Source: a virus (taxonomy: Duplodnaviria; Heunggongvirae; Uroviricota; Caudoviricetes). From it: DNA of 52,137 nucleotides. The stretch lies in the IMG/VR virus record IMGVR_UViG_2778261534_000002; one strand, written 5' to 3'. The notes under the pieces are model-generated. The model made no database searches. It was not told the DNA's origin and saw nothing but the letters and a program-made list of their open reading frames with translations. Positions 12,013 to 42,953 of this stretch are shown one piece after another (position 1 is the stretch's first letter; the number at the start of each line of letters is the position of its first letter). The position numbers and the translations under genes are program-made.

Positions 12013-15000
12013 TTGGACAAACTACTTCATTCAATCAGTGAAGCCTCCAGCTTAGGCGAACTGATTGAAATTGTTAGTCGGTTGCATAAATTACGTGCTG
12101 TTGCGACCTTTGGCGTCAGGAAAGCCGATGGCGTCAGTATTCAGAAAACACGCCGGGCAGCAAACAATGCCGCAGTAAATCTTCTTAATTCCCTTCCGCC
12201 CGGCTTCGATGGGGCGAAATTAACTGACGAACAACGTCAGATTCTTGCTGGGTATACCGGTGAAGGCGGCCTGACAGATGGTGAGGGCAGCCAATACGAA
12301 TACTACACGCCACAGTTTATGGCTGAAGGTATATGGGATCTGTTTGCTGACTACGGTATTGATGGCGGGCACGTACTGGAACCATCAGCGGGCACAGGTA
12401 TTTTCCAGGAGACAAAACGGCAGGGCATGATAATGACCAGCGCGGAACTGTCTCCGATTTCTGGTCGAATAAACCAGCTTTTGCACCCGGAAGACGATGT
12501 GAATATCGGGGCGTTTGAGGCGCTGGCGGCGAAAGATGCAATGTATGACCACGCTGTTGGTAACGTACCGTTTGGTGAAGGGCGTTCCGGCGTTGCCGGG
12601 CTTGATCCGGCATATGCAAACGAGAAGAACGTTGGCAATTACTTTGTGCTGCGCACGATCGACAAGGTTAAGCCTGGTGGGCTTATCGTATTGGTGGTGC
12701 CAAATGGCATGACCGATGGTACGAAATATAAAAAATTGCGCGATAAAGTCAGCCGTAAAGCGGAATTTTTGGGCGCACATCGTATGCCTTCCGGTACGTT
12801 CAGCGAATCCGGTACAGATACCGTGGTGGACGTATGGGTATTGCGTAAACACCCGGAAACCTTCCTGGAGATGATCCCCGACACGGATGATTCAACACTC
12901 AAATCGGCAAACGTCCTTTGGGATACCTTCCTCAAAGGAAAATGGTTTACAACCGAAGGGAAGCGATTTGTTTACGGCGACATGGAACGTACCAGCTTCC
13001 GCAATACCTTGGTGGTGAAAAAAGACGGTCGTGTATCCAATGAGTCGATGAAAACCGCGCTATCTCGTCGCTTTGATAGTCGCATCAATTGGGATTTGCT
13101 CGGCGTAACTACTCAGGCATGGCAGGGCGCGAAAGTGGGCGATAAACGCCTTGTAGGCGGTATCTGGCATGAGTTTGATGGTCTGAAATGGGTTAAGGAC
13201 ACGACAACTAAATCCTCCGCGCTTGATGTAAGTCGATATGGTGTTTCGACGTTTGGCGATCTGCAGATCGCGTTCCAGTCAACAAACGGGATTCTGTCTT
13301 TGTCATGGGACCAGATATCGGCGATCGCGTCCGACTATCCATCGGTTGTCAGTGATGACGTGGCAGCAATGATTCGCTTTGCTGGCAAGCAGCGAGAAAA
13401 AGACAGGGAGCGCGTTATGCGCGGTGCGCTGATAGGTCAGTTGATCAACAAGGCACTTGATTTGCGTAACCTGGGTGTGAACGTTGATGACAAACTGGCA
13501 GATGCATCCCGCCTGGCGGCAGCAGAAGTTGCGAAGTATGGACCACCGCACGCCATTAAGCTGAATGGGCTTGCTGAAGCTGGCGCTAAAAACTGGATGA
13601 CGTTCACTGGCAATGTGAAACAGGATGGTTCCACTTCTGACCTTCTGGCAGGGCGACTTGATGTAACGGATGGTGCTGCCGGTATTGACTTTACACGTCC
13701 TGAACAAGTGATAGCACATCTTTTCAGTGATGTAGCCCTTAATCCTATAACGCTGGGAGACTTTCGTGAGGCGTTTGCTGGTGAACTGCCAGAGGACGAC
13801 GACGCGGCCCTTGAATACCTGGCGAAATTTGATGATATCGCTATTGATGGGTATGGCTGCCTGCTGCCGATGGACCGCGCCACCAGCGGCGATATTGCAA
13901 CCAAAACAGCATTGCTGATGGGCTGGCGTGATGCGTCAACAGGTGAGCAGAAAGCGAACTTTGAGCGTCAGTTGGCGAAAATCGAAGAGAAACGTATTTT
14001 CACGCCACTAAATAAAGTCACCGTTAATCTGAATGCCCGCTGGCTGGATCGCCGCTTGATAAAAGAGTTCCTGGCAGAGCAGGGCTATGACGAGTTTAAG
14101 TACACTGAACCTGATCTGAAGGTCGTCGATGGCATTCTGGTATCTCCGGACGATTACGAAGGTAAGGACGGGGTATTTACCGGCTATCAGCTACGAACCG
14201 TAAACGGCAAAAACGGGAATGAGTTCAAGAAGGCCAACAATAAAGACGGCTTCCTGAACCAGTTAGAAAACTACCTGAACGGTGTTAAACCGCGTGGGCA
14301 GAACGCTAACGAGTACCTGGATAAAATTGCTCAACTGGAAGTTAGTTTTAACGACTGGTTACGCACTCACCCGCAGGCTGATCAGATAGCCCGCGAGTAT
14401 AACGACGCATTCAATGGTTTCATTCCGTTCACGCATTCTGACGCACCGCTTGGCCTGGAAGGGCTTAGTGGAAAGCGCATTCCTCTTACTTATCAGAATG
14501 AAGAAGTTCGGCGCTTGTCAGAAGATGGGCGCGGCATCATGGGATTTGGTACCGGGCTGGGTAAAACCACGACCGCGCTTGCGCTTGAGGCGTATAACTT
14601 CGAAACAGGTCGCACTAAACGCACGTGTATTGTTGTTCCGAAGGCGGTTTATCAGAACTGGTATCACGAGGCACAGAGTTTCTACAGTGCTGATGCCTTT
14701 GCCAATATGATGTTTATCGGTTTGGATGAAGTTCGTGATGACAGCGGAAATATTCTGACCGCGCCGGTGCTTGATGAAAATGGCGAACCACGCCTCGACA
14801 GTAACGGGCAGCCTCTTACCAGAAATGTTGTGAAAGAGTCCGCCAGCGCCGTTATCGTTCAGCGCATGAACATGATCCCGTCGTCAAATTGGCGAACGGT
14901 CATCATGACAAAAGAACAATTCGCGTCTATCCCGCTACGAGAAAAAACCATCGAGGAGAACTCACAGCAAGCTGTCTTTAATGCTGTGGAAATGGGGCGT

Positions 15001-18000
15001 CTTGACCTGGCGTCCGGTAAACACCGTGATGCGCAGAAGAAGAACAAGATTAAGGATCAGGCCGCGAATACCGGTACAACGAAGAAGCAGAATATCCCGT
15101 ACTTTGAGGATATGAACTTCGATAGCGTGATTGCCGACGAGGGGCATAACTACCGCAACTCCTTTAATGCCGGGCGTGAAGCGGGACAACTGGCATATTT
15201 GCCTAACCCGGCAGTATCCAAGATGGCCCGCGACATGGCTGTAAAAGCTGCGTACATGATGAAACGCAACAACGGGCGTGGTGTAGTCATGCTGACGGCA
15301 ACTCCGCTGGTGAACAGTCCGATTGATGCCTTCAACATGCTGTCTACTGTCATTCCGCAGGAAGAGTGGATGCGCATGGGCATCATTACGCCTGATGATT
15401 TCGTTCGTGTGTTTGGCAAAACAGCCACAGTTCAGGTCCAGAAAATTTCCGGGGAAGTGGAAGAGAAGCAGGGGCTGGTGGGCTTCCAGAACCTTGACGG
15501 CCTGCGTGGTATTTTCCATCGTTGGACCACTCTGAAGACTGCTGCAGATGTCGGAGCAACGGTTAAAATTCCCGACATCATTGAGAACACCTTGCAGATC
15601 CCGATGACAGGGGAGCAGGAGACTGCTTATGAAGAGCTTCGTAAGCGTGCTCAGGAGTTAAGTCGCAATGATGAGCTGACAGTCGATGAAAACGGGCATA
15701 TCACTAACGACAAACCGGATGATTTCATCTTCTCCATCATCCGTGACATGGACAAGGTTGCTATAGACCCGGATCTGTATGCCAGTGCGATTACATTCCA
15801 GTTCCCCGTTGAGCTTGCAGACCAGGTAAAAGCTATTGCTGATGCCTTGCCAAAAGTAGCTGGCGGTAAAGTGGCAGATGATGTTGATGAGGCCGAGGAA
15901 GACGGCGCTGGCGGGCTGGTCAGTACGCGTACCAGCAAGGTAGTGAAGACCGCTTTTAGTGAACATCCGACGCATGTTGAAATACGTGCCAGCATTGAAC
16001 TGGAAGCTGAAATACTTAAGGCCATTGCGGCTGCCGGTATTGATATGCAGCAGGTATCGCACCCCATCCCGCCGAAGTATGCCGCGCTGATCGAAAATCT
16101 TCGTGAAGGTCTGAAGAACGGTAAGCAGATCGTCTTTATTGATGAAAAAGCCCAGCACCAGAAGCTGCGCCGTATTATCGCCAGTGCACTGCAAATGCCG
16201 GAGCAGGAGATTGGCATTATCAATGCGACGACAGTTAGCCAGGCTGGCGGCATCAAGCTGAAGAAGGTGAATAAGCCGACCGAACCTACTCCAAACAAAA
16301 ACGGTGAATACAAAGAAGGGGCATGGGAAACCTACTACAGCAAACTTGCCCAATATGAGGATTATCTCTCAGCCAAAAATGATGCTGGCCTTGAGGGCAT
16401 GGAAGGTATTGCCGCCGACTATAACGAAGGTCGCACGCGCATCATAATCTGTAACAAGAAGGCTGAAGTAGGTATTAACCTGCACATCGGGACAACCGAT
16501 ATCCACCACCTGACACTACCCTGGACACCAGCCAGTATCGACCAACGAAATGGGCGCGGTGCGCGCGTAGGTTCACCGCAAGAGAAGGTCAATGTTCACT
16601 ACTATTGTGGCAAAGGCACATTCGACGACTTCCGTCTGGATACGCTGAAACGTAAGAAAGACTGGATCAAGATGGTGATGACCTCCGACATGTCAGAGAT
16701 CGCCAATGGTGATGCGGATGATGCTGATGAACGCGCCATTATGCTGGCGGCAAACCCGGAAGAACGCCGCGCAATCATGGCTCGCCAGGCGCAAGAGCGT
16801 GAAGAACGTCTGAAACTGAAAGCACAGCGCGAGGCCAACAATGCTCTCGATATCTACCTGAAAGCGGCAAACGCCGCCGGAAAAGATATCGGCATGATGG
16901 AGACAGAACTGAAAAGCGCGATGGAACAGATAGAGTATTACCAGCGCAATCTTGACGACCTGATAAAAGCGGGTACGAACAGGAATGGGCAAAAATACGC
17001 GCTTGAGCAGTTGAGTAGCTACAGAAAACGTGCGCGGGTGCTGAAGTTTGCGATCACCAGGGCAAAAGACGCGGATACCATAATGAAACGCTCTCGTGGT
17101 GATGTGGAGCGCGCTATTAAGTCTGGTGTGCTGGATATCAGTATCGATGTTATTCAGAACCCACAGGAATATATGCGCACTGACAAGAATATCCTGTTGC
17201 ATAAAGGTAGTTATTACCGTGCAGTCATTGATGATCGCGAAACAACAGCGATTGTCCGGGTGGAAAAAATTGACGGTGAAAAAGCACAATACATCTGCCG
17301 TATCGCCTGGCTGGATAGAGCAAGTCGTTACGCTCGATCACCGGGGTCAATCGTTACATTGCCGTTTGACTCTGTGATTGAAGCGGTAACTTTTGAAGAG
17401 GGGGTAGCTGAATCGCGCGCAACGGCTGCGCGTGGTGTTCAGTGCCACCAGCTATCAACGTCACTTACTCGCGATCAGTTCTATGATGCTATTCGTAACG
17501 GAGTAATGAAGGTCACTACAGGCCAGCCTGGTAGAGCATGGGGCGGTGAACCAGGTATTAAATACTGGGCCTATCGCACCGATGATGGTCAGATCGCGCT
17601 GTCATCGACCTATGATGGCATGATAGGACAGAAAATCGGGCGTACATCGGATATTGCACCAGAGCAGTGGATTTACCCTGATATCAACAATGAGGCGCTG
17701 AAGCGTGAAGTGGCAAAAATACAAGCCAGTGATAATCCGCTGAATATCGTGGACGGAGAGGGATTCCTCCAGGCATTGTATGGGTATGATTACATCCAGG
17801 GAATGCAGGCATGGGGCGCACAAGCAACGATGGATGATGTTGCCCAGGAGTTCGAAAACTGGATGGCTGGGCGTGGTCTGTCAGGTCGCTCGCTTAATAA
17901 AGTCACTTCTGAAGATATTCTTAGCTTGTTCCGCAAACCGTCCGGAGAAGGTCTGGAATCATTCTGGAGGACCGTGCTGGCATACCGTTTATTCCAGGGC

Positions 18001-18849
18001 AGGATGAAAGCCTTTAGCAATATCGATGATATTGAACGGATGTTTAATCAGGTCAAGATAGCGAAAATTAAGACGAAGATCGAAAAAACACGTTCTGCGC
18101 TGGTGGCCTGGCGCGATGCATTGTTTGAGCAATATAAATCACTCAGTGATGCAGATGGATGGGCGGCATTGGAACAGCTGGCGAATAATGGGGTAGATGG
18201 AGCGAAACTCGCCATTGTTCAGGCTGATAACCCCCTGGAATCACCGGCAGCACAGTGGATTAAGGTGGGGGCTGTCATCAATGCATTTGATGAAAAATAC
18301 ATTAGTAAGGACGATTTTGCTGATGCTGTTTCTGTTAATCGCCTGGTAGAAATGGCTACCCGCCGCGCCCGTGAGTTGAAAGACGGCGACTATGTGAATG
18401 AGTTGCCGGATACGCTCAAATCGGCAACGTGGCAGGACTATGTATCGCTGAAAAACGGCGGGGCCACTGAATCAGAGATCGCGGAAAGGCTTGAGCAGGC
18501 TGAAAGCAAAAGAGAAGAGCAGGCGGCAGTGGCTGAAGCCAGAGCTGATGAAGCGGCGAATGATGACTATATCATTGTGGTTAATGATAAGCCGATTCGC
18601 GCTAAGGCGCGTGTTCGCGGGCGCTGGTGGAGCGTCAGCGAGGACGTTGGCGCGGTTTATCTCATTGCCGACCAACCAGGTTCCTCGACAATACGGAACG
18701 CCAAAGACGCGATTAAGAAGATTGGCGGGCGTTTCTGGAATTTTGAAGCAAACCCGGTTGCTGATGTGAACTTTGACCGTCCTGCATGGATGGTATCTAC
18801 GCGTTACTCGGTAGATGAACTGCGTAAAATAATCGCCGATGCGGCCTAA
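12013..18849 (+). CDS. darB: DarB-like giant antirestriction protein (N6-adenine methyltransferase + helicase)
   Basis: 2278 aa from TTG 12013 (SD GGGGG); methyltransferase motif I EPSAGTGIF and motif IV NVPFGE; helicase Walker A GFGTGLGKTT and DEGHNY box. Confidence 0.85.
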   Translation: MDKLLHSISEASSLGELIEIVSRLHKLRAVATFGVRKADGVSIQKTRRAANNAAVNLLNSLPPGFDGAKLTDEQRQILAGYTGEGGLTDGEGSQYEYYTPQFMAEGIWDLFADYGIDGGHVLEPSAGTGIFQETKRQGMIMTSAELSPISGRINQLLHPEDDVNIGAFEALAAKDAMYDHAVGNVPFGEGRSGVAGLDPAYANEKNVGNYFVLRTIDKVKPGGLIVLVVPNGMTDGTKYKKLRDKVSRKAEFLGAHRMPSGTFSESGTDTVVDVWVLRKHPETFLEMIPDTDDSTLKSANVLWDTFLKGKWFTTEGKRFVYGDMERTSFRNTLVVKKDGRVSNESMKTALSRRFDSRINWDLLGVTTQAWQGAKVGDKRLVGGIWHEFDGLKWVKDTTTKSSALDVSRYGVSTFGDLQIAFQSTNGILSLSWDQISAIASDYPSVVSDDVAAMIRFAGKQREKDRERVMRGALIGQLINKALDLRNLGVNVDDKLADASRLAAAEVAKYGPPHAIKLNGLAEAGAKNWMTFTGNVKQDGSTSDLLAGRLDVTDGAAGIDFTRPEQVIAHLFSDVALNPITLGDFREAFAGELPEDDDAALEYLAKFDDIAIDGYGCLLPMDRATSGDIATKTALLMGWRDASTGEQKANFERQLAKIEEKRIFTPLNKVTVNLNARWLDRRLIKEFLAEQGYDEFKYTEPDLKVVDGILVSPDDYEGKDGVFTGYQLRTVNGKNGNEFKKANNKDGFLNQLENYLNGVKPRGQNANEYLDKIAQLEVSFNDWLRTHPQADQIAREYNDAFNGFIPFTHSDAPLGLEGLSGKRIPLTYQNEEVRRLSEDGRGIMGFGTGLGKTTTALALEAYNFETGRTKRTCIVVPKAVYQNWYHEAQSFYSADAFANMMFIGLDEVRDDSGNILTAPVLDENGEPRLDSNGQPLTRNVVKESASAVIVQRMNMIPSSNWRTVIMTKEQFASIPLREKTIEENSQQAVFNAVEMGRLDLASGKHRDAQKKNKIKDQAANTGTTKKQNIPYFEDMNFDSVIADEGHNYRNSFNAGREAGQLAYLPNPAVSKMARDMAVKAAYMMKRNNGRGVVMLTATPLVNSPIDAFNMLSTVIPQEEWMRMGIITPDDFVRVFGKTATVQVQKISGEVEEKQGLVGFQNLDGLRGIFHRWTTLKTAADVGATVKIPDIIENTLQIPMTGEQETAYEELRKRAQELSRNDELTVDENGHITNDKPDDFIFSIIRDMDKVAIDPDLYASAITFQFPVELADQVKAIADALPKVAGGKVADDVDEAEEDGAGGLVSTRTSKVVKTAFSEHPTHVEIRASIELEAEILKAIAAAGIDMQQVSHPIPPKYAALIENLREGLKNGKQIVFIDEKAQHQKLRRIIASALQMPEQEIGIINATTVSQAGGIKLKKVNKPTEPTPNKNGEYKEGAWETYYSKLAQYEDYLSAKNDAGLEGMEGIAADYNEGRTRIIICNKKAEVGINLHIGTTDIHHLTLPWTPASIDQRNGRGARVGSPQEKVNVHYYCGKGTFDDFRLDTLKRKKDWIKMVMTSDMSEIANGDADDADERAIMLAANPEERRAIMARQAQEREERLKLKAQREANNALDIYLKAANAAGKDIGMMETELKSAMEQIEYYQRNLDDLIKAGTNRNGQKYALEQLSSYRKRARVLKFAITRAKDADTIMKRSRGDVERAIKSGVLDISIDVIQNPQEYMRTDKNILLHKGSYYRAVIDDRETTAIVRVEKIDGEKAQYICRIAWLDRASRYARSPGSIVTLPFDSVIEAVTFEEGVAESRATAARGVQCHQLSTSLTRDQFYDAIRNGVMKVTTGQPGRAWGGEPGIKYWAYRTDDGQIALSSTYDGMIGQKIGRTSDIAPEQWIYPDINNEALKREVAKIQASDNPLNIVDGEGFLQALYGYDYIQGMQAWGAQATMDDVAQEFENWMAGRGLSGRSLNKVTSEDILSLFRKPSGEGLESFWRTVLAYRLFQGRMKAFSNIDDIERMFNQVKIAKIKTKIEKTRSALVAWRDALFEQYKSLSDADGWAALEQLANNGVDGAKLAIVQADNPLESPAAQWIKVGAVINAFDEKYISKDDFADAVSVNRLVEMATRRARELKDGDYVNELPDTLKSATWQDYVSLKNGGATESEIAERLEQAESKREEQAAVAEARADEAANDDYIIVVNDKPIRAKARVRGRWWSVSEDVGAVYLIADQPGSSTIRNAKDAIKKIGGRFWNFEANPVADVNFDRPAWMVSTRYSVDELRKIIADAA

Positions 18850-20822: not shown

Positions 20823-22046
20823 GTGACGGGAACAGCAATGAGTCAACACACTGATACTTCTAATCTGGAAATTATCTCGACAGCAATTGAAACGCTGCGC
20901 ACACAAATCGCTCTTATACAGAAACGGAATCCGGGTGATGACCTGTCAAAGCGACTGCACGAGAGTGTCATTGCCACTACAGATAACCTGGTGGCGGAAA
21001 TCAACAAGCTGCTTGATGATGGGGCAGTTGATTACAATAAGCTGGTGGATCAGTTTGAGGAATACCAACAAGCCGTTAATGATGGCTTGATCCGTTTTTC
21101 ACAAGTCACAGGCGTATCAGCGACAGTTGAAAGCCTGGGTGATGCAGTTAATCAATTTGCCGCGAATATGCGTAATGAGATCGGCAATCTGGAAGCGCGT
21201 CTTGAACAGGCAAATACACTGCGTAAATCTGCCGAAGCCGATTTGAACCGTTACAAAAAAGACTATCCGCCCAGCCTGACAAAGCGGCTGGATGTTGCGG
21301 AGAAGGATAACCGCGCGCTGAAAAGAGAGCGCCGGGAACTAAAAGAGCGTTTAACCAAGCTCAATCAGCAATGCATTGATTATCAAGGCGAAGGCGTCAC
21401 ACTGCGTAAAAAGTTGGCTACAGCGCAGAGCATTATCGAAACATTAAAGCGAGAGTGCTCACAGCTTGGTCACGATCTGAACCGTGCTTGTGGCATGGGA
21501 CAAAGACCAGAGACATTTCCACTCATGTATGATGGAAGGGATGCCATTGCCTACATCCATGAGTATCCGCACGGCCTGGTTGCGGAAACAGGGCAGCGTG
21601 GCGAAGCACTGTTGACGGCTAATTACCATCAACAAATCAGAACCAATCGCCTGTTAACGATGGATGTGATCCCATCGGTATGGGGAACGCCGCTTTACTA
21701 TCGCCTGCCGGGCTTCGAAAAGGACTGGAATACCGACATAGACGAATGTCTCGCAGATAAAATTATGGCGTACCTGGAGACGGATTTTCCGCGCTTATAT
21801 CGCCGGATTATGGACTCTAAGGATGCGCCAATCGATGAATTAAAAATGCGTCCGGAGACGCTGGAGGCAATCAAGCAGACGGAGTTTGATACTGTATTCA
21901 GTGTGGCCTGCATTCCAAGCTGTTTCCATGAAAGCATCCCGTTCATGCAAGGAGATCGTCGTCAGGAAATCATTGACGCTTGCCGGGTATGGGCGAACGA
22001 ATGGGATAAGAAGAATGGGGGTGTAGAAGATCTTTATGGGAAATAA
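20823..22046 (+). CDS. hypothetical protein, N-terminal coiled coil
   Basis: 407-aa ORF (probable start ATG 20838); coiled-coil N-half, Cys/His-containing C-half; no recognizable catalytic motif. Confidence 0.5.
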   Translation: MTGTAMSQHTDTSNLEIISTAIETLRTQIALIQKRNPGDDLSKRLHESVIATTDNLVAEINKLLDDGAVDYNKLVDQFEEYQQAVNDGLIRFSQVTGVSATVESLGDAVNQFAANMRNEIGNLEARLEQANTLRKSAEADLNRYKKDYPPSLTKRLDVAEKDNRALKRERRELKERLTKLNQQCIDYQGEGVTLRKKLATAQSIIETLKRECSQLGHDLNRACGMGQRPETFPLMYDGRDAIAYIHEYPHGLVAETGQRGEALLTANYHQQIRTNRLLTMDVIPSVWGTPLYYRLPGFEKDWNTDIDECLADKIMAYLETDFPRLYRRIMDSKDAPIDELKMRPETLEAIKQTEFDTVFSVACIPSCFHESIPFMQGDRRQEIIDACRVWANEWDKKNGGVEDLYGK

Positions 22047-22047
22047 T

Positions 22048-22062
22048 GTGTTAGAAATCTAA
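22048..22062. promoter_or_regulatory. operator-like 15-bp motif
   Basis: GTGTTAGAAATCTAA. Confidence 0.35.
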
Positions 22063-22203
22063 AATCACAATTCGAATGTATTGATTGTGGAGATAACTTA
22101 ACATAGAATTTTCCTTGCTGGTGGGCAGTACCCACGTTTCGCTTGCTGGGCTTGATAGTCACTTATTGGTTATTGTTCGCCCACCAGCATTTAACAAATT
22201 AAA

Positions 22204-22218
22204 GTGTTAGAAAAGGAT
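22204..22218. promoter_or_regulatory. operator-like 15-bp motif
   Basis: GTGTTAGAAAAGGAT. Confidence 0.35.
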
Positions 22219-22699: not shown

Positions 22700-22820
22700 A
22701 AGAAAGAAGCCGACTTGTGATCCCTTTCTGCGGGCATTTGAAAGTGAATCCAGCTCAGGCAGTCGGCTTCTTTCTTGTGTGAGATGTAGCGTATTTGCCC
22801 ATCTTCGGGTGGGCTTTTTT
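22700..22820 (+). ncRNA. candidate structured small RNA
   Basis: perfect 16-bp inverted repeat AAGAAAGAAGCCGACT (22700-22715) / AGTCGGCTTCTTTCTT (22761-22776) around a 45-nt loop, then hairpin GCCCA-N8-TGGGC plus TTTTTT (22797-22820). Confidence 0.3.
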
Positions 22821-23280
22821 AGGGTTTTCGTCATGGTTAGCGACTTTGCGGCGGTTTAGAAACCGACCATTAAAGTAAATGCAAACGATGATCTGATGAT
22901 GGTAGCGGCCTAAGAAGCCAGACGCCACGGGGTATGAGTCGTCCCCCGTCAAAAAATCGACCGCAGAGTGTCCCCGTCTGTGTATTAGGGAACGGGGAGG
23001 CATAACAGGCAAGGGCGCTGGTGTGATTAACCAGATGAATGAGAAGGGTCAGGTCTTTCTGGTCAGCGCCCTTACCTGTTACGTCCCTCCCGCGTAACAG
23101 CCATTGATTAATGGCTTTCTGGGATAACATCCTACTACGGGTATATCCCGTCATGCTGAAGGCGCTAATCACGCTGGAAGCCAGGGTTGTGCATCCCCTG
23201 TTACCGAATTGCAGCCAGGGCGCGGTGCGCCGAAAAGCATACGGAGGTGGAAGCCCTCGCCGGAGACGTACCCGGCAAGT

Positions 23281-23357
23281 GATGGTGTAGCTCAGTAGGA
23301 TAGAGCAGCAGCCTTCTAAGCTGTCGGTCGGTGGTTCGAATCCACCCACCATCGCCA
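23281..23357 (+). tRNA. tRNA-Arg (anticodon UCU)
   Basis: 77 nt; 7-bp acceptor stem GATGGTG/CACCATC, anticodon loop CTTCTAA, T-loop GGTTCGAATCC, 3' CCA. Confidence 0.9.
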
Positions 23358-23580: not shown

Positions 23581-23609
23581 AGTGCTCTTACCGTTGTGAT
23601 GAAGTGCAG
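23581..23609. repeat. 30-nt spacer repeat, copy 1
   Basis: AGTGCTCTTACCGTTGTGATGAAGTGCAG; related copies at 23811 and 24112. Confidence 0.5.
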
Positions 23610-23724: not shown

Positions 23725-23741
23725 CCGTAACCGGCACCACA
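23725..23741. repeat. duplicated tRNA-Thr 3' end fragment
   Basis: CCGTAACCGGCACCAC repeats the 3' end of tRNA-Thr (CCGTTAACCGGCACCA, 23514-23529) about 210 nt downstream. Confidence 0.45.
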
Positions 23742-23810
23742 ACGTTGAGAACACTGGCGTAACGGGGTCATATCCCAATCTATGAATAAATGTTGCGTTG
23801 CAGCGTGACA

Positions 23811-23844
23811 ACCAGTGTTCTCAACATTGTGGTGAATGCACAGG
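23811..23844. repeat. 30-nt spacer repeat, copy 2
   Basis: CCAGTGTTCTCAACATTGTGGTGAATGCACAGG; its first 16 nt are also the reverse complement of AACGTTGAGAACACTGG at 23741-23757 (large stem-loop). Confidence 0.45.
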
Positions 23845-23931
23845 CTGATGTGCCGCAACTACAGTAGTGCGCGCTTTGCGGGGCTTGCTACAACCCTGTG
23901 TCGGAGTTCAGCACCGACCATCACAATCACT

Positions 23932-24018
23932 GGAGAGTAGGGAGCATGGTGCTCAAGCGGTCTTGAAAACCGTCCCATTGCGCAAGCGATGATGGTTCGA
24001 TTCCATTACTCTCCGCCA
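23932..24018 (+). tRNA. tRNA-Ser (anticodon UGA), long variable arm
   Basis: 87 nt; acceptor GGAGAGT/ACTCTCC, anticodon loop CTTGAAA, T-loop GGTTCGATTCC, 3' CCA. Confidence 0.85.
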
Positions 24019-24111
24019 GTGCAACGTTAAGAGTATTTGGCTAATTAAGCGAATGCCGGAAGCAGAACCGGATCACCAAATGCGTACAGGCGTCATCGCC
24101 GCCCAGCCAGC

Positions 24112-24142
24112 CAAGTGCTCTTACCATTGCGGTGAATGCGGC
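24112..24142. repeat. 30-nt spacer repeat, copy 3
   Basis: CAAGTGCTCTTACCATTGCGGTGAATGCGGC. Confidence 0.5.
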
Positions 24143-24281
24143 TAAGCGCACGCGGAACAGTTAAAACAATCCTCCTTAGTGGTTAAGTCAAACATCCCGG
24201 CGTTAATTGTTAACTGGTTAACGTCACCTGGAGGCACCAGGCACCGCAGCTTTTTTATTCGGTAAATAATGGAGTGAGAGG

Positions 24282-24518
24282 ATGCAGAACAATCCGAACA
24301 AATGTCGAACGCTATGGGTGCGGTTATATATTTATGTCGTCCTCTGTTTGATTGTGTCACTGGTTCTGTATGTTTGGCTTTTGCCAAATATGATCTCATC
24401 TGACAGCACAATACTTGTATTGTTGGGAGTCCTTCTCGCGCTCATTTACCCGGCTTTTGCAGTAGTCTTTTTTCGTGAAAAAACCAGGAAATTGATTAAT
24501 GAAAAAAACGTTGATTAG
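24282..24518 (+). CDS. small integral membrane protein
   Basis: 78 aa, two hydrophobic helices, SD GGAGTGAGAGG before ATG; overlaps start of the SPFH lipoprotein gene. Confidence 0.45.
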   Translation: MQNNPNKCRTLWVRLYIYVVLCLIVSLVLYVWLLPNMISSDSTILVLLGVLLALIYPAFAVVFFREKTRKLINEKNVD

Positions 24519-25326
24519 TGCAGCGATTATTTTTGGTTCTTTATGTCTGACCGGATGCGATCGGGTAGAGCCAGGTAACGTAGGGATCAAAGTAAATAAG
24601 CTGGGGGATGATAAAGGTATCGGTGAAGTAGTTGGCGTTGGTCGCTACTGGACAGGCTTGAATACTGAAGTTTATATCTTCCCGACCTTTAAGCAAATGA
24701 AGACATACGATGAGCCGTTCAGCTTCCAGATGAGCGACGGAACAACCATTGGTTACCACATCGGCGTAGCCTACAAGGTTGATCCAGCAAAAGTCACAAC
24801 GGTATTTCAGACCTATCGCAAAGGTGTAGATGATATTACTGATACCGATCTACGCCAGAAGGTTGCAGATGCTCTGAACCGGTTAGCCAGCAAAATGACC
24901 ACCGACAAATTTATCGACGGTGGCAAATCTGAATTGCTTGATGCAGCCCTTAAAGACATTCAGGAAGAAATGACGCCCATCGGTATTCAGGTAATGAGCC
25001 TCTCATATGTGGGCAAGCCGGAGTACCCGCCAACCGTTATCGACAGCATTAATGCCAAAGTCACGGCGAACCAGAAAACTCTGCAACGCGAGCAGGAAGT
25101 CAAGCAACGCGAAGCAGAAGCCAACATGCTGCGCGCAGAAGCTGCTGGACAGGCCGATGCCATTCGCACAAAAGCCCAGGCTGAAGCTGATGCCATTCGT
25201 TTACGCGGTGAGGCTCTGCGCCAGAACCCCGGCGTTATGGAGTTGGAAGCGATCAACAAATGGAACGGAACGCTACCGCAGTATATGACCAGTAATACCG
25301 CTGTTCCGTTTGTTCCGGTGAAATAA
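24499..25326 (+). CDS. SPFH/band-7 (prohibitin-like) lipoprotein
   Basis: 275 aa; signal peptide with lipobox LTGC; SPFH-like core followed by Ala/Glu-rich coiled-coil tail. Confidence 0.65.
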   Translation: MKKTLISAAIIFGSLCLTGCDRVEPGNVGIKVNKLGDDKGIGEVVGVGRYWTGLNTEVYIFPTFKQMKTYDEPFSFQMSDGTTIGYHIGVAYKVDPAKVTTVFQTYRKGVDDITDTDLRQKVADALNRLASKMTTDKFIDGGKSELLDAALKDIQEEMTPIGIQVMSLSYVGKPEYPPTVIDSINAKVTANQKTLQREQEVKQREAEANMLRAEAAGQADAIRTKAQAEADAIRLRGEALRQNPGVMELEAINKWNGTLPQYMTSNTAVPFVPVK

Positions 25327-25339
25327 CCAAATAGATAAC

Positions 25340-25471
25340 ATGATGGAATTTTGGACGTTTGCCGACAAGAACCCTTGGTGGACATTTTTATTTCTGCTGG
25401 TGGTTGCATATGGGGTCGAGCAAGCAGCAAAAGCCTTACGCGGTCCTGGCAAAAAGCGTAAGCGGAATTAA
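25340..25471 (+). CDS. small membrane protein (43 aa)
   Basis: MMEFWTFADKNPWWTFLFLLVVAYGV...KKRKRN; single TM helix with basic tail; below the ORF-track length cutoff; found by eye. Confidence 0.3.
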   Translation: MMEFWTFADKNPWWTFLFLLVVAYGVEQAAKALRGPGKKRKRN

Positions 25472-25480
25472 CAGTAATCT

Positions 25481-25556
25481 GGCCCTTTAGCTCAGTGGTT
25501 AGAGCTGGCGACTCATAATCGCACGGTCACCGGTTCAAGTCCGGTAGGGGCCACCA
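25481..25556 (+). tRNA. tRNA-Ile2 (anticodon CAU, lysidine type) or tRNA-Met
   Basis: 76 nt; very close to E. coli ileX-type sequence as recalled (GGCCC.TTAGCTCAGTGGTTAGAGC...CTCATAA...GGTTCAAGTCC...GGGGCCACCA). Confidence 0.85.
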
Positions 25557-26010
25557 TATTTGGTTGTAACACGGCGTCTGGCACATGCGTCGTTAGCGGT
25601 CTGGTGACGTTAAAGGGGTATCTTTGACTCTTGCTCAGGCAAACGGACCAGGTAGCCGGAATGTGCAAGCCCCGATAACAGTGGCGGACCGAGGACTCAC
25701 CATCCTGGCGATTCGGTGTGACAGCCGGAAGAGCACGGCGCACAACAGGAAAAGGCGTTTAATTAGCGTGAGCGCCGTTTCCGTTGTGGTAATTGCGGCT
25801 ATGCGCTCGTGACGAAGCCATTTTTATTCACTACGTTCTGATAAGTGACGTCGCCAGGAGTGGCTAACCTGGCAGGTGGAGGCACCACCGCCACAACTCC
25901 TTTCAATTCATCATATAGCCGCTCAGGCTGTACCCCTTAATTAATACGAATTTACGACATCACTACCGGCACTTCCGGGGGATAGTCGCGCGTGTAAAAA
26001 AGGAGACGTT

Positions 26011-26978: not shown

Positions 26979-27086
26979 TATTAGGTGTTTAATATTAATT
27001 TTCTAATACAATCATCTTTTTACCAGTCTATACAGTTTTAACATTCTCATTATCATCCCCTCGGTCATTTCCTGCCCGGGGGATTA

Positions 27087-42922: not shown

Positions 42923-42953
42923 ATGTTAGAAAACTAAAATCAATGTTCTAACA
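42923..42953. promoter_or_regulatory. operator-like motif pair
   Basis: ATGTTAGAAAACTAA (42923-42937) plus partial inverted copy TGTTCTAACA (42944-42953). Confidence 0.45.

Follow-up and report, generated by a model that had tools for sequence, protein, structure and literature searches.

Why does a phage-plasmid carry a gene for an SPFH lipoprotein in the middle of its tRNA array, and what might the protein do for its carrier? The question is raised by positions 24,282 to 25,471 of a 52,137-nt stretch of tailed-phage DNA (IMG/VR record IMGVR_UViG_2778261534_000002, Caudoviricetes; hereafter the window, meaning the whole stretch). The window is a D6-like phage-plasmid, with 98% identity to Escherichia phage D6 and 99.9% identity to ~92-kb plasmids of Salmonella and E. 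coli. An original prediction, made from the sequence alone, had read the block as a small membrane protein, an SPFH/band-7 lipoprotein and a 43-residue membrane peptide, with a function in lysogenic conversion or superinfection exclusion. Here, we show that the three-gene block is a horizontally exchanged cassette, which replaces tciA-tciB-tciC of phages D6 and P1 in a slot between tRNA genes. Its core is a conserved pair, an SPFH lipoprotein with a two-helix partner, which our analyses suggest would be expressed early and would form a dome protecting or partitioning the inner membrane. We give this proposal as a whole a probability of about 0.45, and a lower one to the purpose taken alone.

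The ORF listing and a tRNA scan confirm three open reading frames (ORFs) between tRNA genes, which we assign as follows:

24282..24518, + strand: two-helix inner-membrane protein, 78 aa (ORF list; PHROG 1130)
24499..25326, + strand: SPFH/Band-7 lipoprotein, 275 aa (Pfam, PHROG, AlphaFold2, Foldseek)
24499..24558, + strand: lipoprotein signal peptide with lipobox L-T-G-C (read from sequence)
25340..25471, + strand: TciC-family small membrane peptide, 43 aa (BLAST identity to D6 TciC; weak ribosome-binding site)

The 275-aa protein matches Pfam Band_7 (PF01145) over residues 22-208 with 107.6 bits against a cut-off of 23.6 (E=9.7e-31), and PHROG 200 'lipoprotein' over its full length (E=3e-113). 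Near-identical copies are annotated in RCS47, Ro157c2YLVW, P88, phiP27 and Stx-converting phages, variously as 'SPFH domain-containing protein', 'lipoprotein' or, misleadingly, 'putative serine protease'. Residues 1-19 (MKKTLISAAIIFGSLCLTG) read as a signal peptide, with MKK, a hydrophobic core and a lipobox, which would be cut before Cys20 (24556-24558) to leave Asp21 at position +2. The lipobox, L-T-G-C20, conforms to the pattern [LVI][ASTVI][GAS]C. Among 23 close homologues, 21 have [LMIV]-[TVAS]-G-C followed by Asp or Glu, the other two having Tyr for Cys, and the lipobox Cys is retained in the inspected homologues from 99% down to 26% identity. At the sequence level, Asp21, like the Asp or Glu of the close homologues, is also the +2 residue expected for inner-membrane retention in Enterobacteria. 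Thus, the predicted SPFH/band-7 lipoprotein with an LTGC lipobox holds up, and the membrane module inside the tRNA array is real and membrane-directed. The Tyr-for-Cys subgroup (..IIGYDRVEPG..; proteins P0114 and P0119) occurs in E. coli and other Enterobacteriaceae, with P0119 on 175 contigs; judging from its sequence, this widespread subgroup could not be lipidated at the lipobox position.

The protein is laid out as SPFH1, SPFH2, a helix of ~65 residues and a conserved C-terminal motif, KWNGxLP...PF. An AlphaFold2 monomer model (mean predicted local distance difference test score [pLDDT], 75.8) has two SPFH sub-domains of strands and helices (residues 20-175) and a single long helix (178-242), with the C-terminal 30 residues at pLDDT <50. 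The model and its Foldseek matches thus show an SPFH domain followed by a long coiled-coil helix, as in the cage-forming members of the family. The first SPFH strand (V-E/P-P/A-G) begins 3-6 residues past the lipidated Cys, so the domain would sit directly on the membrane surface. Compared with its homologue in phage P88, the mature protein differs at half of the synonymous sites and at almost none of the nonsynonymous ones (proportions of synonymous [pS] and nonsynonymous [pN] differences, 0.51 and 0.01), a mark of very strong purifying selection. The 78-aa protein (pS 0.81, pN 0.28 against the P88 partner) and the 43-aa ORF (pS 0.76, pN 0.18 against D6 TciC) also show substitutions of the kind left by purifying selection; therefore, all three ORFs are genes, not chance reading frames.

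The 78-aa protein falls in PHROG 1130 'membrane protein' (E=2.4e-15). Two hydrophobic helices give it a predicted N-in, C-in topology with a short periplasmic loop carrying P-x-M-I-S. When 16 diverse partners and N-terminal extensions of long homologues are aligned, Pro35 and Ser39 are invariant and Gly49 is nearly so. Against Pfam, the protein has no match above cut-off, NfeD (PF01957) and DUF3927 included.

The 78-aa ORF overlaps the start of the SPFH gene by 20 nt. On the other side, the 43-aa ORF begins 13 nt past the SPFH stop, so the overlapping small hydrophobic ORFs once predicted for both flanks are found on the upstream flank only. Similar couplings occur in unrelated genomic settings: the P2-like phage P88 has a 67-aa two-helix ORF and the lambdoid phage phiP27 an unannotated 62-aa one, each with a 4-nt overlap with the SPFH start, and gp28/gp29 of the N4-like Klebsiella phage Pylas, the former annotated '2 TMDs N in C in', overlap by 4 nt as well. 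In the rV5-like phage KB57, one small gene lies between the partner and SPFH genes. We sampled 155 viral loci with four different queries, covering lineages down to 40% SPFH identity, and found a recognisable SPFH ORF in 140. An upstream ORF with two helices and the loop motif P-x-[LMFIV]-[ILVM]-S was present in 122 of these 140 loci, another two-helix ORF in nine and neither in nine; many of the loci are near-duplicates, and the fraction is indicative only.

When 1.84 billion representative proteins were searched, 221 clusters passed E<=1e-30 and 945 passed E<=1e-10. Among the representatives, many of 330-390 aa combine the two-helix hairpin, the lipobox and the SPFH domain in a single reading frame. 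They are possibly genuine fusions, or gene callers may have joined neighboring genes that lie in frame; fused or joined, they show an old linkage of the pair. In the window, PHROG 200 and PHROG 1130 are encoded by adjacent, overlapping genes on the same strand, both proteins match their families over the full length, and we see no structural difference from this family pair, which is not described as a pair in the literature searched. Altogether, the gene arrangements show that the two-helix protein and the SPFH lipoprotein form a conserved, translationally coupled two-gene core.

What kind of SPFH system is this? By sequence search of the PDB (E=1.9e-4) and by structure (7vhq, E=1e-13), the best match is HflK/HflC of E. 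coli, which share the Band-7/SPFH fold followed by a long C-terminal helix and, like the phage protein as we predict it, face the periplasm from the inner membrane. Foldseek ranks prohibitin and erlin next, followed by stomatin, flotillin, QmcA and the vault shoulder; the matches to HflK/C, prohibitin, erlin, stomatin and flotillin span the full length. The E-values lie close together for all SPFH families, and the ranking is not strong evidence. The phage protein is, however, only 18-20% identical to HflK/C and scores far under the NCBIfam equivalog cut-offs (HflC, 24.7 vs 134.4 bits; HflK, 23.3 vs 159.4 bits). HflK and HflC are two paralogues with N-terminal transmembrane anchors, whereas the phage has a single gene, a cleavable lipoprotein signal, a lipid anchor and a two-helix partner of its own. 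We therefore rejected the protein as an HflK or HflC orthologue, based on the scores, the single gene and the lipid anchor.

The likeness nevertheless carries the main rival to our proposal. FtsH is a membrane AAA+ protease, and a phage cage mimicking HflK/C might capture it or displace HflK/C, altering the turnover of phage regulators, membrane proteins or LpxC during infection. Besides the sequence and structure matches and the predicted periplasmic orientation, two further points speak for an action on FtsH: prohibitin and erlin, the next-best folds, likewise associate with systems of membrane proteolysis and lie on the side away from the cytoplasm, and a pN of 0.01 would suit a conserved host target. 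The idea of an HflC-like role was also raised, speculatively, for another phage SPFH protein in a phage genome paper (PMC10269572). The low identity and sub-threshold scores, the single gene in place of a K/C pair, the lipid anchor in place of a transmembrane helix and the closeness of the Foldseek scores across families count on the other side, as do relatives in haloarchaeal viruses, whose hosts are not known to have FtsH. On balance, we regard an FtsH-directed mimic as unlikely, though as the strongest of the alternatives.

SPFH-NfeD operons (QmcA-YbbJ, YqiJ-YqiK and archaeal stomatin PH1511/PH1510) likewise couple an SPFH gene to a gene for a small membrane protein, and QmcA matches the phage protein in fold (8z5g, E=2.3e-8). 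The partners differ: those of the phage family have 61-78 aa and two helices and lack an OB-fold domain. The SPFH domains of SPFH-NfeD operons also face the cytoplasm; the phage SPFH protein instead has a lipoprotein export signal. As the partner is without an NfeD match, the module was rejected as an SPFH-NfeD pair. It differs from the described SPFH systems by its lipid anchor and by a two-helix partner instead of NfeD.

From these features, we propose the following arrangement. The lipoprotein would be exported, lipidated at Cys20 and retained in the inner membrane, on the periplasmic face, because of the Asp at +2, the start of the SPFH domain 3-6 residues after Cys, the inner-membrane hairpin of the partner and the one-frame versions of the pair. 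There, it would oligomerise through its long C-terminal helix into a dome, as HflK/C, prohibitin and erlin do, with the two-helix protein embedded at the rim of the dome or inside it. HflK/C, prohibitin and erlin face away from the cytoplasm, in agreement with the export signal of the phage lipoprotein.

The setting of the pair in the genome bears on its function. A five-way DNA alignment of the window with D6, P1, Ro157c2YLVW and RCS47 delimits the slot and its borders:

24251..25475 (approx.), + strand: exchanged cassette, standing in place of tciA-tciB-tciC of phages D6 and P1 (five-way DNA alignment)
24128..24248, + strand: STnc100-like conserved leader, ending at the left junction; left anchor of the slot (Rfam RF02076)
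25481..25556, + strand: tRNA with anticodon CAT, whose P1 homologue is annotated tRNA-Ile2 (trnI); right anchor of the slot (tRNA scan)
23932..24018, + strand: tRNA-Ser(TGA), the last tRNA ahead of the cassette (tRNA scan)

All five genomes share their sequence up to ...GGCACCGCA(G/A)C, at about window position 24250. The SPFH-type junction that follows, TTTTTTATTCG.TAAATAATGGAGTGAGAGGATG, is identical in the D6-like window and in the P1-like phages Ro157c2YLVW and RCS47, with the 78-aa gene next in line; in D6 and P1, tciA follows instead. Relative to D6, the flanks are 96.8% (left, 23901-24248) and 90.7% (right, 25466-25700) identical, and the interior of the cassette is unalignable or saturated at synonymous sites. 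The CAT-anticodon tRNA at the right border is nearly invariant across the five genomes.

In D6 and P1, the slot holds tciA (TerB domain), tciB (DUF3927, two helices) and tciC, bordered by tRNA-Asn/Thr(/Ser) genes upstream and by the CAT-anticodon tRNA downstream, and the same slot is annotated in the P1, D6, RCS47 and Ro157c2YLVW records. The SPFH block resembles tciABC in several respects: the flanking tRNA genes, the strand and the operon are the same, its third gene is likewise TciC, 9 nt before tRNA-Ile2, and it, too, combines a larger protein with a two-helix protein and a single-helix peptide. It differs in having an SPFH lipoprotein instead of a TerB domain and in the reversed order of the two-helix and larger proteins. 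No protein of the window's block matches TerB in Pfam, which D6 TciA matches at E=2e-14. We also considered the 78-aa protein as a diverged TciB and rejected it, since BLASTP against P1 TciB gave no alignment and the protein has no DUF3927 match.

How common is the exchange? In PLSDB, 577 plasmids match the flanks, and about a third of them (188) carry >=80% of the SPFH block; most of the others hold TerB and DUF3927. tciABC has been described as one of eight variable regions of P1-like elements, 'lost' from nearly half of them, with no replacement named (PMC9603915). Our census indicates that this published loss is at least partly a replacement by the SPFH cassette. Further slot contents were seen in D6-like plasmids: NZ_CP034790 holds TciC alone (L088 record 1691-1822), and CP057059 has another two-helix ORF of 76 aa (MGFLLSDFRYRWLW...), which overlaps the TciC start (L089, about 1660-2020) and has no match in Pfam or PADLOC. 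In the D6-like NZ_CP081308 (hit H69), the cassette match breaks off within the SPFH gene (query base 605) and continues at another place in the record, and an IS3-family transposase lies inside the region matched to the window; the pattern suggests an insertion sequence that inactivates the SPFH gene.

The third gene belongs to the slot more than to the SPFH pair. The 43-aa peptide, which has a hydrophobic core and ends in a basic tail, shows 70% identity to D6 TciC, itself unannotated (E=2e-18), and shares the N-terminal motif FWxFADK.P with P1 TciC. Because its synonymous sites are saturated against D6 (pS 0.76) between flanks that are 97% and 91% identical, it lies inside the exchanged segment. 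In the P1-type SPFH carriers, this tciC variant is cut down to its final ~25 nt and the SPFH stop lies 27 nt from the tRNA; these carriers probably derive by deletion from a three-gene block like that of the window. Outside the P1/D6 slot, at the P88 and phiP27 loci, no TciC was found beside the SPFH pair. TciC is therefore a constant companion of the slot, occurring in the rival tciABC cassette as well, and the SPFH pair does not require it; the three-gene block is the unit of exchange in D6-like elements. The peptide that had been counted as part of the membrane module is thus a real gene, but of the TciC family and not peculiar to the SPFH pair. We note that no clear Shine-Dalgarno sequence precedes the TciC-like ORF (25326-25340, …gaaataaccaaatagataacATGATG), where D6 and other slot alleles have AGGA- or AAGGTGG-type sequences; from this, the peptide may be poorly translated in the window's cassette.

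When would the cassette be expressed? According to the P1 GenBank annotation, on which our statements on the P1 operon rest, the tRNAs and tciABC of P1 are preceded by Pban, a promoter under C1 control with the operator pair Op72, and followed by ban. A perfect copy of this operator pair is also present upstream of the cassette in Ro157c2YLVW, a P1-like phage with the SPFH block. For the window, an operator-like motif was derived from the window itself: the 13-nt motif AWWDTGTTAGAAM occurs in 12 copies against 1.47 expected (about 8-fold), a count reached in none of 100 shuffles.

22045..22213, + strand: candidate repressor-controlled promoter of the tRNA/cassette operon (promoter scan and motif count)
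8657, 9852, 20796, 22045, 22201, 27000, 31433, 32843, 42920, 42945, 47866, 48528: copies of the motif AWWDTGTTAGAAM, at intergenic positions

Copies lie upstream of lpa (27000, by a promoter-like site at 27029-27056), beside c1 (31433) and as a divergent pair (42920 and 42945). Two more, at 22045-22057 and 22201-22213, flank the promoter-like site at 22081-22109, the sole sigma-70-like promoter that the scan gave ahead of the tRNA array; from 22110 to the cassette, it gave no promoter-like site. The motif is probably the C1 operator of D6-type phage-plasmids, a candidate assignment that draws on these positions. The module would then be co-transcribed with the tRNAs from a C1-repressible promoter, and because of that repressibility, we propose that it is expressed early, upon induction or infection, and is silent in the stable lysogen.

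The location of the pair in other phages is consistent with early expression. In P88, it lies in an early operon between cox and a replication gene; in phiP27, in the leftward early region before xis-int; and in Pylas and KB57, among early, nucleotide-metabolism and replication genes. By tblastn over 50,697 phage genomes, the SPFH family occurs in 432 records (about 0.85%), full-length in 410. Its carriers include N4-like, rV5-like, FelixO1-like, LUZ24-like, phiCbK and crAss-like phages, Lak megaphages and haloarchaeal viruses, as well as temperate P1-, P2- and lambda-like phages, and many of the phages with a full-length copy are obligately virulent. A role in the lytic cycle is favored, since a function limited to lysogens would not explain the spread into virulent phages.

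These gene neighborhoods also speak to whether the SPFH protein is a virion or assembly component, for which a mass-spectrometry survey of a Vi01-like phage preparation gives a hint: three peptides of an SPFH lipoprotein were detected (PMC10892097). That count is at trace level compared with hundreds for structural proteins (PMC10892097), the gene sits among early and replication genes and not structural ones, the protein has a lipoprotein signal peptide, and PHROG 200 is placed in the category 'other', not structural. We consider a structural role the least probable of the explanations, with almost no weight.

Expression in the lysogen, where the cassette would guard the carrier cell from other phages by lysogenic conversion or superinfection exclusion, was the function first suggested for this block. 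The cassette does fill a known variable cargo slot of P1-like elements, and an alternative occupant of that slot, tciABC, has TerB relatives with links to the inhibition of phages and to colicin resistance. A prophage-borne HflK/C-like virulence factor has also been reported from Pasteurella multocida (PMC9872710), in the only experimental paper on such a prophage protein in the literature searched: PM0222, compared here by description only, is a 25-35 kDa SPFH protein on a lambda-like prophage, but the paper reports it from outer-membrane vesicles and deals with its effects on the animal host and virulence, not with phage biology. We disfavor a lysogenic function because operator-like sites flank the promoter and the family is common in strictly virulent phages. 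The operator-controlled promoters upstream of the cassette, the lack of any promoter-like site from 22110 to the cassette and the early-region location in P88 and phiP27, in the orientation of those early genes, point the same way, as do a sequence that is strongly conserved and not diversifying and the lack of a PADLOC match. A lysogen-specific role is thus improbable, somewhat more so than the capture of FtsH.

The suggestion that SPFH proteins recur in phage exclusion and defense contexts found no support. None of the three proteins matches any of the 5027 models of PADLOC-DB v2 at E<=1, and among the D6 tci proteins, there is one weak sub-threshold match, of TciA to PDC-S48 (E=0.0048). The literature searched holds no functional study of a phage SPFH protein in defense or exclusion; papers only remark on its presence. 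These results also bear on an abortive-infection or toxin-like effector that would depolarize the membrane once triggered. Small hydrophobic proteins beside a membrane scaffold could in principle form a pore, and the 78-aa protein has a match to PHROG 565 'holin', which at E=0.065 is not significant. Yet there is no match to a defense model and no sensor or enzymatic domain, and the module is carried by virulent phages among their own early genes, which is unexpected for an abortive-infection system. We hold such an effector to be very unlikely.

What purpose could an early, periplasm-facing dome serve? In our favored proposal, it would fence off and stabilize a patch of inner membrane, so that the infected cell tolerates or excludes membrane damage from a second injecting phage, from pore-formers or from premature lysis. 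Protection of the membrane would explain why the cassette is interchangeable with the TerB-type tciABC, and we prefer this purpose because the interchangeable TerB cassette has relatives that have been tied to the inhibition of phages and to resistance against colicins. A role in superinfection exclusion within the lytic cycle is possible. As a functional analogy, and a lead only, T4 Imm and Sp form an early superinfection-exclusion pair, in which a small inner-membrane protein and a membrane-anchored periplasmic protein protect the infected envelope; they have no known sequence or fold relationship to the phage SPFH pair.

Several points weigh against this proposal. On the protein side, stronger retention signals than Asp at +2 with Arg next to it are known in E. 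coli, a P-x-x-x-S partner is missing from some family members (Pistou, Pae-1), and the one-frame 'fusions' are possibly gene-caller mergers. The HflK/C-like prophage protein of Pasteurella, likened by description only, was reported in outer-membrane vesicles (PMC9872710). On the side of timing, the P1 C1 operator consensus has a single match in the window, at 42942, with three mismatches, which is not above chance, and the motif derived from the window was used instead of the consensus; that AWWDTGTTAGAAM is the C1 operator in D6 is something we infer. A strong intrinsic-terminator-like hairpin (22797-22814, GCCCATCTTCGGGTGGGC + T run; region 22740-22822) also separates the candidate promoter from the tRNAs, so read-through or RNA processing would be needed. 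As to purpose, the argument from tciABC leans on TerB phenotypes of other operons and not of P1 tciABC, and the conservation of the mature SPFH protein suits a conserved host target, such as FtsH, better than the exclusion of diverse phages.

That last point leads to a more general reading. The pair might be a host-takeover device of phages at large, a cage facing the periplasm that would trap a single conserved client in the host's inner membrane, FtsH being the prime candidate. Very different phages could thereby reprogram membrane proteolysis or integrity early in infection, and in P1 and D6, the device would be interchangeable with tciABC. We think this improbable, about as much as a role confined to the lysogen. 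If true, it would tie the TerB and phage SPFH families to the same envelope process.

The SPFH gene itself is already annotated in many records, and no new category of system is suggested. Relative to the literature searched, three points appear to be new, if modest: the gene pairing, the allelic relationship with tciABC and the likely early-lytic control. Membrane cages have recently been shown for SPFH scaffolds (HflK/C, prohibitin, flotillin and stomatin), and what these cages enclose, and to what purpose, is debated. The phage module is a minimal scaffold, with one lipid-anchored protomer and one partner of 60-80 aa, and this small module could be a tractable model for how SPFH cages choose their clients. 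In addition, the tRNA-bounded slot holds alternative membrane modules that could be compared head-to-head.

The remaining observations concern the RNA features and neighbors of the slot. The leader at its left border scores 39.4 bits against Rfam RF02076 (STnc100), under the gathering score of 47 (E=2e-7 to 3e-6). It is conserved in D6 and in part in P1, and its closing stem terminates at the recombination junction. The inner hairpin is CCTGG...CCAGG in the D6 type and CCGGG...CCCGG in the P1 type, with both sides changed. An unusually stable RNA or terminator was rejected for this region (24105-24262), given a folding energy z of 0.34. The terminator-like hairpin at 22797-22814 falls where P1 homology begins, near the P1 'dicF-like region'; an Rfam search of the region homologous to the latter found no DicF, with a weak match to permuted tmRNA (24 bits).

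The tRNA scan reads the genes upstream of the cassette as Arg(TCT), Tyr, Thr and Ser. The first of these (23281-23357) shares its acceptor, D and T arms with tRNA-Asn(GTT) in P1, D6 and Ro157c2YLVW, but its entire anticodon arm differs, with paired changes on both sides of the stem, and it reads Arg(TCT). This looks like an identity switch through replacement of the anticodon arm on a conserved scaffold. The tRNA spacers contain three copies of a ~26-nt motif (AGTGCTCTTACC.TTG.G.TGAA..; 23581-23606, 23814-23839 and 24114-24139) and a 23-nt inverted repeat with 96% complementarity (23735-23757 with 23812-23834), which could be RNA-processing sites or remnants of tRNA genes. Further upstream, an ORF of 2278 aa (12013-18849) corresponds in matching D6 and plasmid records to 'defense against restriction' and to SNF2-related or DEAD/DEAH helicases, and its product is presumably the DarB-like antirestriction protein of the phage-plasmid.

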